Shown piece after piece: positions 26,920 through 32,266 of a DNA stretch of 64,000 nt. Made by a program: the position numbers and the translations under genes. The stretch lies in NCBI RefSeq assembly GCF_056746865.1, contig NZ_CM163382.1, one strand, 5' to 3'. The notes below the pieces were generated by a model that was not told the DNA's origin, ran no database searches, and saw nothing but the letters and a program-made list of their open reading frames with translations. How positions within the stretch are numbered: the first letter of the stretch is position 1; each line of letters opens with the position of its first letter.

Positions 26920-27081
26920 ATGGCTATTTCAGTAAAGCCGGTATTGATAAGTGAGAAGCAAATGGAAGCGATAAAGAAAATTCAGGAAGAGCAGCGTAAA
27001 AAATCAGGAATTGGAGTAGCGCCAACTCTACATGAAATTGCACGAGGGTTAATAGATAAGGCGCTGGCAGGCTGTATGTGA
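26920..27081 (+). CDS. small hypothetical protein (53 aa, absent from the ORF track)
   Basis: ATG at 26920 preceded by aagggggcg SD; MAISVKPVLISEKQMEAIKKIQEEQRKK...; first gene of the 26920-32266 operon. Confidence 0.4.
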   Translation: MAISVKPVLISEKQMEAIKKIQEEQRKKSGIGVAPTLHEIARGLIDKALAGCM

Positions 27082-27097
27082 AAATGGATGGCATCGC

Positions 27098-28230: not shown

Positions 28231-29549
28231 TGGCGACATGGCAACTTGGCGGGCTGCCTAGCATGGCACCGCAAAATGATAATGCTCCTCGTTCTTCCGT
28301 TCCTCAGCCTGTGCAGTATCAGCAGCAGCCAAACGTAGGTTTAATGGCGCTACAGGGGCTAAGAGGCGTTGCTGAGATTAATCAGCAGGCGCAAATTTCC
28401 CAGCAGCTAAAAGAATATCAGGCACGGTTGGGTAGTGCGGTAGCTAATAATGATCGTGTTGGCGTGCAGAAGTTAATGGCCCAGTATCCCCAGTTTATGG
28501 CTGATTCTCAAAAACAGATGGGATTCATTGATGCTGAGCAAAATCGGCAGACCGCTGACGCTGCCATGAATCTGCGTCTTGCGTCACAAACTGGAGATCC
28601 ACTGACCATGCAGAAGGCCATTCAGCAGGCAAATCCAGTATTACAGCGATTTGGTCTTCCTGCTGAAGAGGTTTATCAGTCTTGGCAGAATGACCCACAG
28701 GAATTCAACAGAATCACTGACCTCATCCACCTCCATGCTGATCCAAATAGTTACTTTAGTGTTCAAGAGAAGCAGCAAGGGCAGAGTATTGCACAGCAGA
28801 ACGCAGATACATCTGCATATAATGCTCAGGTTAATGCGGAGCAGGGTAATCGGCGGCTCGATATGGAGCAGTTCAAAGTCCTATCCGATAACCAACTACG
28901 CACGAGAGAAATGGTTCTGAAAGCACGACTTGGACGTGCTCAAAATGACATCGAGAGAGACAAGCTCAATGCTGAACTGAGCAAGGTACAGCAGGCGAAA
29001 GTGGAGAAGATGAACGATAAAATTAATACTGTTGCAGGTAATATCGACTCCTTGAACTCTGCGCTTGAAGTGGGTCATGAACTGGCGGGAATTGTAGGGA
29101 AACATCCTTCGGCCGTTACCCGTTCGCAGAACTATAACCCCCTGACGCTGGGGTTTGGATTCCTCCCTGATGTAGCAGAAGACACACGAAGCCTACGCGC
29201 CAAAGCTGATGAATACAACCTAAAGGTTATTCTGCCTAGCCTAAAAGGTACTTTTGGCTCTAACCCAACCGAAGGGGAAAGGGCTGCCCTTATGCAATCT
29301 CAAAATGGCATTAAGTCAGCAACCAGCAATGAGGCATTTTTGCGAGAGTTGAATAAAGCGCAGGACGTAATTATTCGAATGCAGAAACGACAGATTGCCG
29401 GGCTCGGTATTCCTGTAACCAAATCTAAGGACGAAGAAACTGATACCAAAATGCTGTTGCAGGATCCTTCACTGGTTAAGGATTATGTGACCGCACATGG
29501 CTATCTGCCGGAAAGTTACTATCAGGCAAAACTTAAGGGATGGCAATGA
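28230..29549 (+). CDS. hypothetical Gln-rich protein with predicted coiled-coil character (439 aa)
   Basis: ATG overlaps the upstream stop. Confidence 0.6.
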   Translation: MATWQLGGLPSMAPQNDNAPRSSVPQPVQYQQQPNVGLMALQGLRGVAEINQQAQISQQLKEYQARLGSAVANNDRVGVQKLMAQYPQFMADSQKQMGFIDAEQNRQTADAAMNLRLASQTGDPLTMQKAIQQANPVLQRFGLPAEEVYQSWQNDPQEFNRITDLIHLHADPNSYFSVQEKQQGQSIAQQNADTSAYNAQVNAEQGNRRLDMEQFKVLSDNQLRTREMVLKARLGRAQNDIERDKLNAELSKVQQAKVEKMNDKINTVAGNIDSLNSALEVGHELAGIVGKHPSAVTRSQNYNPLTLGFGFLPDVAEDTRSLRAKADEYNLKVILPSLKGTFGSNPTEGERAALMQSQNGIKSATSNEAFLRELNKAQDVIIRMQKRQIAGLGIPVTKSKDEETDTKMLLQDPSLVKDYVTAHGYLPESYYQAKLKGWQ

Positions 29550-32266
29550 TGGCACAACTGACAGAAAAACAGAAAGCCTATTCCCGTCATCTCGATGAAA
29601 AATATGGTTTCCCATCAGGGACGATGGAAACATTAGTTGGCAATGAATCTAGTGGTAACGGAAGTGCCGAGTCACCGAAAGGAGCTAGAGGATTTGCTCA
29701 ACTGATGCCCTCAGTAATGAGTGATGCTGGTTATCGTGGAACAGATCCGCGCTCACTGCCATTTGAAAAGCAAATGGATATCGCAGCAAACCATCTCAAT
29801 AAAGGAATGAAGCGATTTGGTGATATAGGTATGGCATTGGCTGGGTATAATTCTGGCTATGCTCGTATTAATGCCGTAAGAAACGGTAAATCTACACTGC
29901 CAGATGAAACGGCTAATTACGTAAGTAAATTTGCAGATGCCGGAATAATCCCTGATGACAGTGAAATCTTGCAGTTTGCACAAACCAGTCAACATCGCAA
30001 TCTTCAGCAGCCTGACTACTCAGAGCTTGATAAAGAAATCTCTCAGGTGGGAGATATTTCTGCATGGGAAGCAAAACGTCAGCAATTTAAGAACATAGAA
30101 GCAGGACTACCAACAGCCAGTTCATGGGAGCAGAAAAGAGCTCAGTTTCTCGCCGATGAAAATGCCGGGGAACCGCAGCAGCAAGTAGCCAAGTCTAACC
30201 TTAATCCTGAGATGGAATATCTTTCGCCAGGACTGAAAGCTGCGCCAGAGCAGATGGCCAGAGGGATTGCTAATATACCGTTTGATGTAATGGACGCAGG
30301 CGTGGGGGTAGTCAATGCGGCGCAATCAGCCGGAGCATGGGCAGCTCAGAAGCTTGGTGTGGGTGATGGCACATACACGCCCATATCACCTGTCTTTCGC
30401 CCAGTAGACCAACCTACAGATCCATACGCGCAGGCTGGTGAGCAGCTAGCACCTTACCTTATTACAGGATTAGGTGCAGGAAAGGCAGCTACCGCAGCTT
30501 CTTCAGTTGCCAACGCTCCACGTGCTGAACGTGCGGCCACAAAGGTGGCTAGTATGTTGGCAGAAAACCTGCCAGGTACATTGGTGAACGCCCAAAAGAA
30601 CGGGCAGATCAGCCCAGAAGACCTAGCAAAAGAGACAGGTATTGGCCTAGCAGGATCGCTAGGAGCACGCGCTTTAATAAAGAGCGGACAGACAGCCAGT
30701 GACGTAATGCGAGATGTATTGCGGAGTAATACAAATCAATCAGGCCATGTGTTAGGGGCAGCAAATACTCTGGAAACCGCCAATGATGTATCGAAAGCAG
30801 CGCGTTCTGCCGTAGGCCGAGAGCATATCGCATCGCAGGCATCAAACGTCAGAGATGATGTCGCTAAGGCGGCGAAAATCACTGGTATTAATATCAACAC
30901 CCTGACGCCTGGAATGCGCTCAGGTAGTCGTGGAATTGCCCAAGCAGAAGGTGTTCTGGCATCAACTCCTGGGAATGTTCAGGATGCTCACCTTACGGCC
31001 TTCAATGAAATATCCTCAAAGTTGAATAAGCAGTTGTCTGATTTCGGTGCTGAGTCTGGAAGCGCATCAGAAAAAAGCGCAGCAATTAAAGAGCGCATCA
31101 TCGCGAGCCTCAGTGATATGAAAACAGCAGAGAATATGGCATGGGCAGAACTGCGAAGCACGATGCCACGCGAAAGGATGAAAATGAGTAATGGGATGGC
31201 TGTCGTCCAAGCAGAAAAAGCAGCCAATGTTCCACTCAGCCCGGAGATGAAACAGTTTCAGGCTGCCAACAACCAAGGTGGCGGCATAACCTTCGACGGG
31301 ATGAAGGCATGGCGTGCTAAGTTTGCTGATGCTGAACAAGCAAACACCCGGGCAGGTAAGGCCAATGCCGCCCGGATTGCCGGAGAAATGCGCAGAGCTA
31401 TCACTGATGACATGCGCATCATGGCTGAAAAAGGAAACTTCCTCACAGAATGGCAGAAAGCTAACGATCTCTCTAAAAGTTACATTATCGCCAAACAAAA
31501 TGCCGAATCTGTTTTTGGTCGAGATCTCGCATCAGACGCTATGGTAAGAAAAGGTGCCGATACGCTTAAGGCATCCGCAAACACTGGAACTGGAGCTTTT
31601 CACCGTCTTATCTCCGCGCTGCCGGAAGCAGAACGCCAACCAGCAATAGCATCTATTCTTCAGCATGCTGTGGCGCAGGGAGAGAAGGGAGGAATCGGTG
31701 AAGAGTCTGGTATCCAGTATTTTGCCAAGCTCATGACCCAGCAGAATGTAAACGCCATCAGTCGTCATGCGCCAGATCTCGGTAGAATGATGAAAGAGTT
31801 CGGTGTACTCGCTAAAGCCAGCACCAGACCGCAGCGATACGTAGAGCGCACGGGAAGAACAACTGAGGCTCTCAAAACGCTCGATTCAGGCCTTCCAAAG
31901 ATCGTCGGCGTGATTATGAACGGAGTTCAACAGTCAGGTGCGATCGCTGGAGGCTTTGGCGGTGGTGTAATTGGTTCGATTAGTGGTTTGGTTGCTGGTG
32001 GCGCGCTGAGAAATACTGTGGCTAAGATTGGGGCGACAAGAAGTGGTAGGTATGCGATAGAGAAAGCCGTTCAGGAAGCTACAAAAGCAGTGCGCGCAGG
32101 GGCATCACCAGCAGCGATCGCCGCAGCAGAGAAACGATTTTCGGCCAATAAAATTGCCATGAAAGCAATTCGTGATGCCGTTGGGGCTGAAGAATTCGTG
32201 AAACTGACAAGGGCCGGGATTGTAGCTACCCTCAGTGGCATGAAAGATGTTAGCGAATGGGAATAG
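29540..32266 (+). CDS. 908-aa protein with N-terminal lytic transglycosylase (SLT-like) motif and Ala/Gly/Lys-rich remainder
   Basis: Residues ~30-130: NESSGN...GARGFAQLMPS...AGYNSGY fits the SLT catalytic-Glu / GLMQ / AYNxG pattern; overlaps the upstream ORF. Confidence 0.7.
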   Translation: MAMMAQLTEKQKAYSRHLDEKYGFPSGTMETLVGNESSGNGSAESPKGARGFAQLMPSVMSDAGYRGTDPRSLPFEKQMDIAANHLNKGMKRFGDIGMALAGYNSGYARINAVRNGKSTLPDETANYVSKFADAGIIPDDSEILQFAQTSQHRNLQQPDYSELDKEISQVGDISAWEAKRQQFKNIEAGLPTASSWEQKRAQFLADENAGEPQQQVAKSNLNPEMEYLSPGLKAAPEQMARGIANIPFDVMDAGVGVVNAAQSAGAWAAQKLGVGDGTYTPISPVFRPVDQPTDPYAQAGEQLAPYLITGLGAGKAATAASSVANAPRAERAATKVASMLAENLPGTLVNAQKNGQISPEDLAKETGIGLAGSLGARALIKSGQTASDVMRDVLRSNTNQSGHVLGAANTLETANDVSKAARSAVGREHIASQASNVRDDVAKAAKITGININTLTPGMRSGSRGIAQAEGVLASTPGNVQDAHLTAFNEISSKLNKQLSDFGAESGSASEKSAAIKERIIASLSDMKTAENMAWAELRSTMPRERMKMSNGMAVVQAEKAANVPLSPEMKQFQAANNQGGGITFDGMKAWRAKFADAEQANTRAGKANAARIAGEMRRAITDDMRIMAEKGNFLTEWQKANDLSKSYIIAKQNAESVFGRDLASDAMVRKGADTLKASANTGTGAFHRLISALPEAERQPAIASILQHAVAQGEKGGIGEESGIQYFAKLMTQQNVNAISRHAPDLGRMMKEFGVLAKASTRPQRYVERTGRTTEALKTLDSGLPKIVGVIMNGVQQSGAIAGGFGGGVIGSISGLVAGGALRNTVAKIGATRSGRYAIEKAVQEATKAVRAGASPAAIAAAEKRFSANKIAMKAIRDAVGAEEFVKLTRAGIVATLSGMKDVSEWE

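Follow-up and report, generated by a model that had tools for sequence, protein, structure and literature searches.

Why should a phage satellite carry its own genes for injecting DNA? The question is raised by a five-gene operon (positions 26920-32266) in a 64,000-nucleotide stretch of contig NZ_CM163382.1 (RefSeq assembly GCF_056746865.1), hereafter the window. The DNA is that of Escherichia coli, and the operon lies on an island of ~21 kb between yicC and dinD (14334-35400), which we assign to the EcCIMP1 family of phage-inducible chromosomal islands (PICIs). Judged by homology, four of its five genes are a complete P22-type ejection cassette in phage order, gp14-gp7-gp20-gp16. PHROGs and NCBIfam profiles found no capsid, portal, terminase, tail or lysis gene on the island, and RefSeq annotates no capsid, portal, terminase or tail gene on near-identical islands; the three sources agree with the original prediction, made from the letters of the window alone, that the operon sits on an island without capsid, portal, terminase and tail genes.

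The ORF listing of the window gives five co-directional open reading frames (ORFs) of 53, 153, 225, 439 and 908 aa within 26920-32266, all on the plus strand, and their coordinates, lengths and junctions, including the overlapping stop and start codons of the last four, were all reproduced. The 53-aa ORF (26920-27081) is preceded by a strong Shine-Dalgarno sequence (AAGGGGG) and followed after 16 nt by the 153-aa gp14 homologue (27098-27559), the end of which overlaps the start of the 225-aa gp7 homologue (27553-28230) by 7 nt (ATGTTAA). From gp7 to the 439-aa gp20 homologue (28230-29549), stop and start share 1 nt (TAATG), and gp20 in turn overlaps the first ATG of the 908-aa gp16 homologue (29540-32266) by 10 nt, the junction around the gp20 stop codon reading ATGGCAATGATGG. 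RefSeq starts gp16 at 29546, which gives a protein of 906 aa and a 4-nt overlap (ATGA) with gp20. As first described, the operon is located downstream of a primase gene (22829-25183) and of iteron-like GGTACAGGT/ACCTGTACC repeats (25213-25316 and 26323-26426), the second cluster falling within a non-coding leader (26318-26919, plus strand) between a 245-aa ORF and the operon. The leader also contains a hairpin followed by a T-run (26801-26816) and a perfect TATAAT (26881-26886) without a good -35 hexamer, and may act as the promoter of the operon.

The five proteins were searched against Pfam, PHROGs, NCBIfam and PADLOC, and structures were compared by means of AlphaFold2 (AF2) models and Foldseek. 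Four proteins matched P22-type ejection families and the 53-aa protein matched none. The 153-aa protein belongs to DUF2824 (Pfam, E = 8e-62) and phrog_651 ('head morphogenesis', E = 1e-66) and is 23% identical to P22 gp14. The 225-aa protein is a member of the P22_gp7 family (Pfam, E = 8.5e-73; phrog_598, E = 3e-70), the small ejection protein and proposed outer-membrane component, and is 56% identical to P22 gp7. The 439-aa protein matches Inj_translocase over aa 34-196 (Pfam, E = 1.2e-21) as well as phrog_917 and phrog_2534 (E ~1e-43), placing it in the gp20 family, the ejection protein of the periplasmic conduit. The 908-aa protein matches phrog_770 ('DNA transfer protein') over aa 189-864 with E = 2e-120, and PF26808 (Phage_P22_gp16) and PF01464 are precomputed on a database protein identical to it. 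The compositional features originally reported are borne out: the gp7 homologue has a hydrophobic Gly/Ala-rich C-terminal tail (aa 201-225), the gp20 homologue contains 11.6% Gln, and gp16 contains 15.8% Ala, 9.7% Gly and 6.1% Lys. Near aa 798-821 (906-aa numbering), gp16 has in addition a hydrophobic stretch rich in Gly.

The N-terminal lytic-transglycosylase motif of gp16 likewise holds in alignment. The SLT domain, of the family 1 lytic transglycosylases, occupies aa 17-119 (29588-29896, plus strand; Pfam SLT, E = 3.8e-12), with E36 aligning with the catalytic Glu478 of E. coli Slt70, and every one of the 70 SLT-bearing homologues retrieved keeps the E-S, GxGxxQxMP and YNxG motifs unchanged. 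We therefore regard the head of gp16 as a predicted peptidoglycan-cleaving domain with intact catalytic motifs. Among solved structures, gp7, gp20 and gp16 had no sequence match, and the SLT domain had only weak ones, to Slt70 and to a tape-measure SLT domain. The fusion of SLT to gp16 is not peculiar to the satellite. The phages Dewey and Huey carry it, their gp16 being 46% identical to that of the satellite over its full length, and so do Serratia P22-like prophages (53-57% identity), in which portal, coat, gp4 and tailspike genes surround the fusion. The gp16 of the P22-like phage Kapi1 has no SLT domain.

The original prediction had likened the operon to the internal core or ejection proteins of T7-like podoviruses. 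That a satellite-like island encodes podovirus-like ejection proteins stands, but kinship with T7 does not, the homology being with P22-type families. The PHROGs family of T7-type internal virion proteins (phrog_342) matches only aa 9-217 of gp16, the SLT part. In T7, gp14 forms a pore in the outer membrane, gp15 a tunnel in the periplasm, and gp16, which has a transglycosylase at its N-terminus, is a protein of the inner membrane (PMC8954989); these core proteins are functional analogues with an equal size gradient and have no sequence homology to the cassette beyond the SLT domain. PHROGs families labelled 'lytic tail fiber/tail protein' also match only the SLT-containing N-terminus of gp16, and a protein with this label from the P22-like phage Sf101 matches it at the SLT-containing aa 21-312. 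That the operon encodes tail-fibre or tape-measure proteins left behind by a degraded prophage is ruled out by the ejection families matched, by the lack of structural remnants and by the match of the island to a verified PICI. Database labels of the cassette genes are inconsistent, ranging over "hypothetical", "DNA transfer" and "lytic tail fiber".

In families, order, sizes and overlapping junctions, the ejection clusters of the Lederbergvirus phages (P22, Kapi1, Dewey/Huey, CUS-3, HK620 and Sf6) are like that of the satellite. The gp14, gp7, gp20 and gp16 proteins have 151, 229, 471 and 609 aa in P22, compared with 153, 225, 439 and 906 aa in the window, and genes of the window's order encode proteins of 159, 224, 447 and 722 aa in Kapi1 and 151, 230, 443 and 875 aa in Dewey. 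The surroundings differ. In P22, Kapi1 and Dewey the cluster comes after the tail-needle gene, whereas the satellite cassette is not between tail-needle gene 26 and a tailspike gene, having the primase, iterons and 53-aa ORF upstream and a lipoprotein gene downstream. No portal, coat, gp4, gp10, gp26 or tailspike gene was found around the cassette on the window island.

All five ORFs are real genes rather than chance ORFs, since each has homologues and shows a dN/dS of 0.02-0.10 when E. coli is compared with the satellite copies of Citrobacter freundii and Leclercia adecarboxylata (82-91% protein identity). The Citrobacter-Leclercia pair gives the same range (0.02-0.10), with a dS of 0.4-0.6 in three of the five genes. 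These values indicate that the cassette is under strong purifying selection. Its association with satellites extends across genera: in Escherichia, Citrobacter, Leclercia and Buttiauxella the cassette has Ant, Ash and primase genes upstream of it, and portal and coat genes are absent. At each retrieved locus for a homologue of the large protein with at least 78% identity (85%, 84% and 78%), a primase and the 53-aa gene come before it and portal and coat genes are again absent, some of these satellite loci having SSB and ProQ genes near the primase, while homologues at 57% or below lie within ordinary P22-like prophages. A scan with the gp7 profile of one genome per species gave 16 informative loci, 14 of them in P22-like prophages and two, in Escherichia sp. 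MOD1-EC7003 and Buttiauxella izardii, in satellites. A contig in IMG/VR (IMGVR_UViG_3300014071_000035; locus L033) is a Citrobacter-type satellite with primase, SSB, ProQ, the 53-aa gene and the cassette, and such elements are thus being catalogued as viruses.

Among 5426 complete E. coli genomes, the segment 26560-27097, which comprises part of the leader and the 53-aa gene and is confined to satellites, is found in 454-520 (~9%). Three cassettes follow it, and their counts roughly account for the leader-bearing genomes. The first, that of the window, encodes gp14, gp7, a 439-aa gp20 and the SLT-gp16 fusion (71-75 genomes); the second encodes gp14 and gp7 together with a gp20 of 473 aa and a gp16 of 701 aa that lacks SLT (185 genomes); and the third consists only of a 447-aa gp20 and a 705-aa gp16 (214 genomes). 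The third is exemplified by enterotoxigenic E. coli (ETEC) H10407 (locus L030, 13361-16984), in which the primase and 245-aa protein are 99.6-99.7% identical to those of the window; other variant cassettes are found at 8361-13197 of locus L031 (UPEC132) and 9368-13337 of locus L009. We interpret the three variants as alleles swapped at a conserved cassette position on one backbone. In strain MDR_56, gp16 is split by an insertion sequence (IS) element.

We place the window element in the EcCIMP1 family, although at another attachment site, because its core is 97.2-98.7% identical to EcCIMP1 while the integrase end differs; the satellite-like island of the original prediction is in this sense a member of a known family. 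EcCIMP1 itself, described by Pick, Stadel and Raivio (ISME J 2025; PMC11773190), is a PICI of 19,963 bp in E. coli MP1. It excises and circularises only in the presence of the P22-like temperate phage Kapi1, requires its own integrase and AlpA, and is transduced by Kapi1, which does not transduce a chromosomal marker (PMC11773190). The identity to the window covers 18382-23666 and 26515-33646 (~12.4 kb of DNA, the whole operon included), and the five operon genes are in identical order and followed by a lipoprotein and a PerC-type regulator in both elements. EcCIMP1 sits at tRNA-Thr, whereas the window island, at yicC-dinD, has another integrase and left end, another right end and an additional IS3-family insertion. 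An island of identical type occupies the yicC-dinD site in strain G749. The C-terminal half of the primase also differs, the near-identical primases of G749 and H10407 being annotated DUF5906 and that of EcCIMP1 DUF927. Family members are thus mosaic in their replication module too: over 23666-26515 (the C-terminal primase half and the ORFs after it), the window matches the G749 and H10407 islands and not EcCIMP1. In the EcCIMP1 paper the cassette genes are coloured as 'DNA transfer' or DUF2824 and were left out of the experiments; the words ejection and transglycosylase are absent, and the genes are not described as a complete ejection set (PMC11773190). Our literature search turned up this paper alone as linking a satellite with ejection proteins. 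By our assignment, then, the element belongs to a known satellite family and encodes known protein families, its insertion site and integrase being new. Also new, as far as sequence comparison goes, are the purifying selection, the satellite context in several genera, the three variants in ~9% of E. coli and gp20 and gp16 alleles unlike those of the helper.

This unlikeness increases along the operon. Protein identity to Kapi1 falls from 83% in gp14 (Kapi1_055) through 58% in gp7 and 26% in gp20 to 24% in gp16. Against the whole Kapi1 genome, blastn finds DNA-level matches in the operon only in gp14 and in the ends and short stretches of gp7, at 77-81%; the identity of gp14 and the gp7 ends points to past exchange with P22-like phages. 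The same search returned nothing in the small-terminase (pac) region, and a pac site common to island and helper was rejected as a candidate. Among the phages compared, the satellite gp20 is also 26% identical to that of Dewey and 28% to that of P22, in the latter over the N-terminal region. The window gp16 is at most ~52% identical to that of any sequenced phage, and among 50,697 phage records the best identity of the three satellite gp16 alleles is only 40-68%. Divergence in gp20 is uneven, with 44-50% identity to Kapi1, Dewey and P22 in the first 50 aa and 10-30% in the remainder.

In P22-like phages, gp7, gp20 and gp16 are packed in the procapsid and leave through the tail after adsorption, and gp14 is an assembly factor that is not part of the virion. 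P22 injects ~12, 12 and 30 copies of gp7, gp16 and gp20, respectively, which form a trans-periplasmic conduit (PMC8402733). Leavitt and colleagues reported that these ejection proteins (E-proteins) enter procapsids by binding the scaffolding protein, with the N-terminal part responsible in gp7 and gp20 (PMC8402733), and very different E-protein sets can replace those of P22 in virion assembly and injection (PMC10461980). As the N-terminus mediates incorporation, the uneven divergence of the satellite gp20 suggests that the parts needed for capsid entry are conserved and the parts acting on the envelope are divergent.

We favour, although by no means firmly, the interpretation that ejection proteins encoded by the satellite are loaded into helper capsids to control the delivery of its DNA. 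On entry of a P22-like helper such as Kapi1 into the lytic cycle, the satellite would be induced and the operon expressed. The satellite gp7, gp20 and gp16 would co-assemble into helper procapsids via their conserved N-terminal scaffold-binding parts, and a gp14 closely matching that of the helper would assist their assembly. Particles with satellite DNA would then inject it through a conduit formed, in whole or in part, by proteins of the satellite, and the SLT domain would contribute peptidoglycan cutting. The advantage would be a delivery of satellite DNA that is independent of the gp20 and gp16 alleles of the helper.

A more specific advantage, which we propose only tentatively, is that the gp20 and gp16 alleles evade exclusion systems that block entry. 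SieA, an inner-membrane exclusion protein, blocks injection; P22 mutations that escape it lie in the C-terminal parts of gp16 and gp20, and the E-proteins of HK620 partly escape it (PMC10461980). Divergent gp20 and gp16 could evade exclusion of the SieA type, which would be expressed by the very lysogens that the satellite most needs to enter, and the minimal cassette of gp20 and gp16 only would fit this idea.

Other satellites likewise carry a morphogenesis-related module 3' of their replication genes, including P4 (Sid/Psu), the Staphylococcus aureus pathogenicity islands (SaPIs; CpmAB/Ppi), EcCICFT073 (Rpp) and capsid-forming PICIs, and in all of them the module is presumably put to use during lytic growth of the helper. 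Those modules resize capsids, redirect terminase or supply capsids, however, whereas the cassette described here consists of ejection families. To our knowledge, and within the literature that our searches returned, no piracy module of a known satellite has been described as supplying DNA-delivery proteins. It is conceivable, if speculative, that EcCIMP1-type satellites are the first known to customise DNA delivery, entering lysogens that block the helper or cells with tougher walls, and that the cassette variants record an arms race over entry. If the virion-loading interpretation is true, a satellite with its own injection machinery adds a new step to capsid theft, resizing and packaging redirection, and offers a direct handle on how satellites borne by podoviruses choose and enter their recipients. 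The element is common, relatives being carried by about one in eleven complete E. coli genomes, pathogens such as ETEC H10407 included, and a genetic system is available in MP1, Kapi1 and EcCIMP1::kan.

Several observations weigh against the loading of virions or against its presumed benefits. We infer from sequence both the expression of the operon on induction and the entry of its products into particles. Particle by particle, the benefit would not be the satellite's alone, because E-proteins are loaded before DNA is packaged and helper and satellite capsids would receive one mix. Transfer of EcCIMP1 by Kapi1 is rare (~5e3 transducing particles per ml), a Kapi1-like prophage is present in only two of 21 EcCIMP1 strains, and deletion of EcCIMP1 leaves Kapi1 titres unchanged (PMC11773190). 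As for exclusion, both SieA types tested excluded several divergent E-protein sets (PMC10461980), and divergence alone would be no guarantee of escape. No SieA was found in Kapi1 or in the window; as Kapi1 has no recognisable SieA, the advantage of escape is only generic for this pair. Finally, at least one copy of the cassette is pseudogenised, as the gp20 of ETEC H10407 has an internal stop.

By the same mechanism but for another pay-off, the ejection genes could serve as a back-up, allowing the satellite to move with P22-like prophages that have damaged or incompatible gp7, gp20 or gp16. This would parallel the second AlpA/Xis copy of EcCIMP1: alpA_1 can substitute for Kapi1 xis and was termed an 'insurance policy' by the authors, and few EcCIMP1 strains have an intact Kapi1-like prophage (PMC11773190). 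The interchangeability of E-proteins among P22-like phages (PMC10461980) also fits. We nevertheless consider a back-up role unlikely. A prophage that has lost its ejection genes alone and still makes capsids, tails and terminase is expected to be rare, and such a role leaves unexplained both the consistent unlikeness of the satellite alleles to phage alleles and the retention of gp20 and gp16 only in the smallest cassette.

Somewhat less probable again is superinfection exclusion, in which ejection proteins made in the resident cell would jam the conduit of incoming P22-like phages. Such a function would explain why EcCIMP1 adds superinfection immunity, an effect seen only in Kapi1 lysogens (PMC11773190), and a further report, whose text does not name them, found some EcCIMP1 genes up-regulated in Kapi1 lysogens (PMC12922286). 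No known defence system was found on EcCIMP1 (PMC11773190). In the window, PADLOC matched neither the operon proteins nor their neighbours, and a known defence system on the operon was rejected as a candidate, no PADLOC model having matched. The operon proteins have no signal peptides, however, and normally reach the envelope from outside; made in the resident cell, the SLT domain would stay in the cytoplasm. An assembly factor such as gp14 and N-termini targeted to the procapsid are sensible only for virion loading, and the DUF4136-type lipoprotein encoded at 32417-33115 is a simpler candidate for an envelope block. The original prediction named virion hijacking and exclusion without choosing between them; the evidence favours a virion-associated role of the cassette.

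We think it improbable that the satellite proteins interfere with the helper by competing with its own and leaving helper virions unable to inject. In PICIs, the genes located 3' of the primase usually have the morphogenesis of the helper as their target (PMC11773190), and the satellite gp20 and gp16 are very unlike those of the helper. Against this, Kapi1 titres from induced lysogens are equal with and without EcCIMP1 (PMC11773190), poisoned capsids would disable satellite-carrying particles too, and purifying selection on the catalytic and membrane-active parts argues for working rather than dominant-negative proteins.

The EcCIMP1 paper put forward EcCIMP1_017-019 as candidates for DNA packaging (PMC11773190), a module that would redirect helper terminase or capsids to satellite DNA. 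The operon does occupy the position 3' of the primase where other PICIs hold packaging genes (PMC11773190), and PHROGs names the gp14 family 'head morphogenesis'. Yet four of the proteins fall in ejection families and none in terminase, Rpp/Ppi or capsid-size families, and the island shares no sequence with the small-terminase region of Kapi1. P22 mutants defective in gene 7, 20 or 16 do package DNA, yielding particles of normal appearance that are non-infectious, which weighs further against a packaging role. We regard such a role as very improbable, and the published suggestion is probably wrong for these genes. That the cassette is an inert leftover of a P22-like prophage recombined into the island is scarcely credible, for although the DNA identity of gp14 and the gp7 ends to Kapi1 and the stop codon in the H10407 copy would agree with it, the five genes are intact with low dN/dS across genera, the satellite-specific first gene and leader are kept in hundreds of E. 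coli genomes and no structural-gene remnants flank the cassette.

Two products of the operon deserve separate comment. The 53-aa protein, for which Pfam, PHROGs and PADLOC gave no match, is found in satellites only, the corresponding position in phages being taken by the tail-needle gene. Its gene precedes the cassette in Citrobacter, Leclercia and Buttiauxella and in the other E. coli variants, and has a dN/dS of 0.02-0.03. The AF2 model (predicted local distance difference test, pLDDT, 78) comprises an extended N-terminus and two helices, and a fold search with it gave no significant match; a ribbon-helix-helix identity agrees with nothing beyond the predicted topology, and we do not assert it. 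The gp14 homologue is modelled with a pLDDT of 90, and Foldseek aligns the model with N-acetyltransferases of the SpeG type (TM-score 0.75-0.80, probability 1.0, E ~1e-8). We therefore predict, with high confidence, that gp14/DUF2824 has a GNAT acetyltransferase fold. At the position of the cofactor loop, G75 is invariant and R74 nearly so, but the loop reads RGEYA and the canonical acetyl-CoA motif R/Q-x-x-G-x-G/A is incomplete. The modelled fold hints that the function of the poorly understood gene 14 of P22 is enzymatic.

The island that carries the operon has the features of a PICI, with integrase, AlpA-type regulator and primase in order, no structural or lysis genes and a length of ~21 kb that includes an IS of ~1.3 kb, PICIs of Gram-negative bacteria being ~10-20 kb in size. 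It is flanked by yicC (13366-14229) on the left and dinD (35630-36466) on the right; a search for att sites gave only repeats of 11-12 nt, insufficient to define its ends. The integrase gene (14334-15677, phrog_1) is followed by an IS3-family insertion with two overlapping transposase ORFs (15858-17131), a 322-aa ORF of unassigned function (17106-18074) and a gene for an AlpA-like regulator, a 67-aa helix-turn-helix protein (18189-18392, phrog_66). The insertion, which lies between the integrase and the 322-aa ORF, may affect the mobility of the window copy. The genes for Ant (18836-19669) and Ash (19838-20869) come next, then small ORFs and the primase (phrog_2249, E = 1e-92). Just 3' of the primase, the two GGTACAGGT/ACCTGTACC repeat clusters flank the 245-aa ORF (25580-26317), and this region (25213-26426) is probably the replication origin of the satellite.

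The 232-aa lipoprotein gene (32417-33115, plus strand) lies 150 nt 3' of the operon and is co-directional with it, and the product has the lipobox LAGC and is a distant relative of DUF4136. A 232-aa gene also follows the SLT-gp16 cassette in EcCIMP1, G749, DLI.6n and locus L028 and is not found with the other two cassette variants. The lipoprotein could underlie the superinfection immunity described for EcCIMP1. A PerC-like regulator is encoded near the right end of the island (34682-34969); the PerC homologue of EcCIMP1 was reported to repress, and not to activate, the LEE (enterocyte-effacement locus) virulence island (PMC11773190).

Outside the satellite, the region 55407-63673 of the window contains tRNA-Sec (selC) followed by setB-like, transporter and nlpA genes and then by a low-GC stretch (36-40% GC). 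The low-GC stretch encodes a type III secretion chaperone of the SicA/LcrH type (59984-60481), and 60728-62509 weakly matches a family of type III secretion needle-tip/translocator proteins (E = 2.6e-31, far under the curated cut-off). We take this stretch to be a type III secretion effector/translocator islet adjacent to selC.

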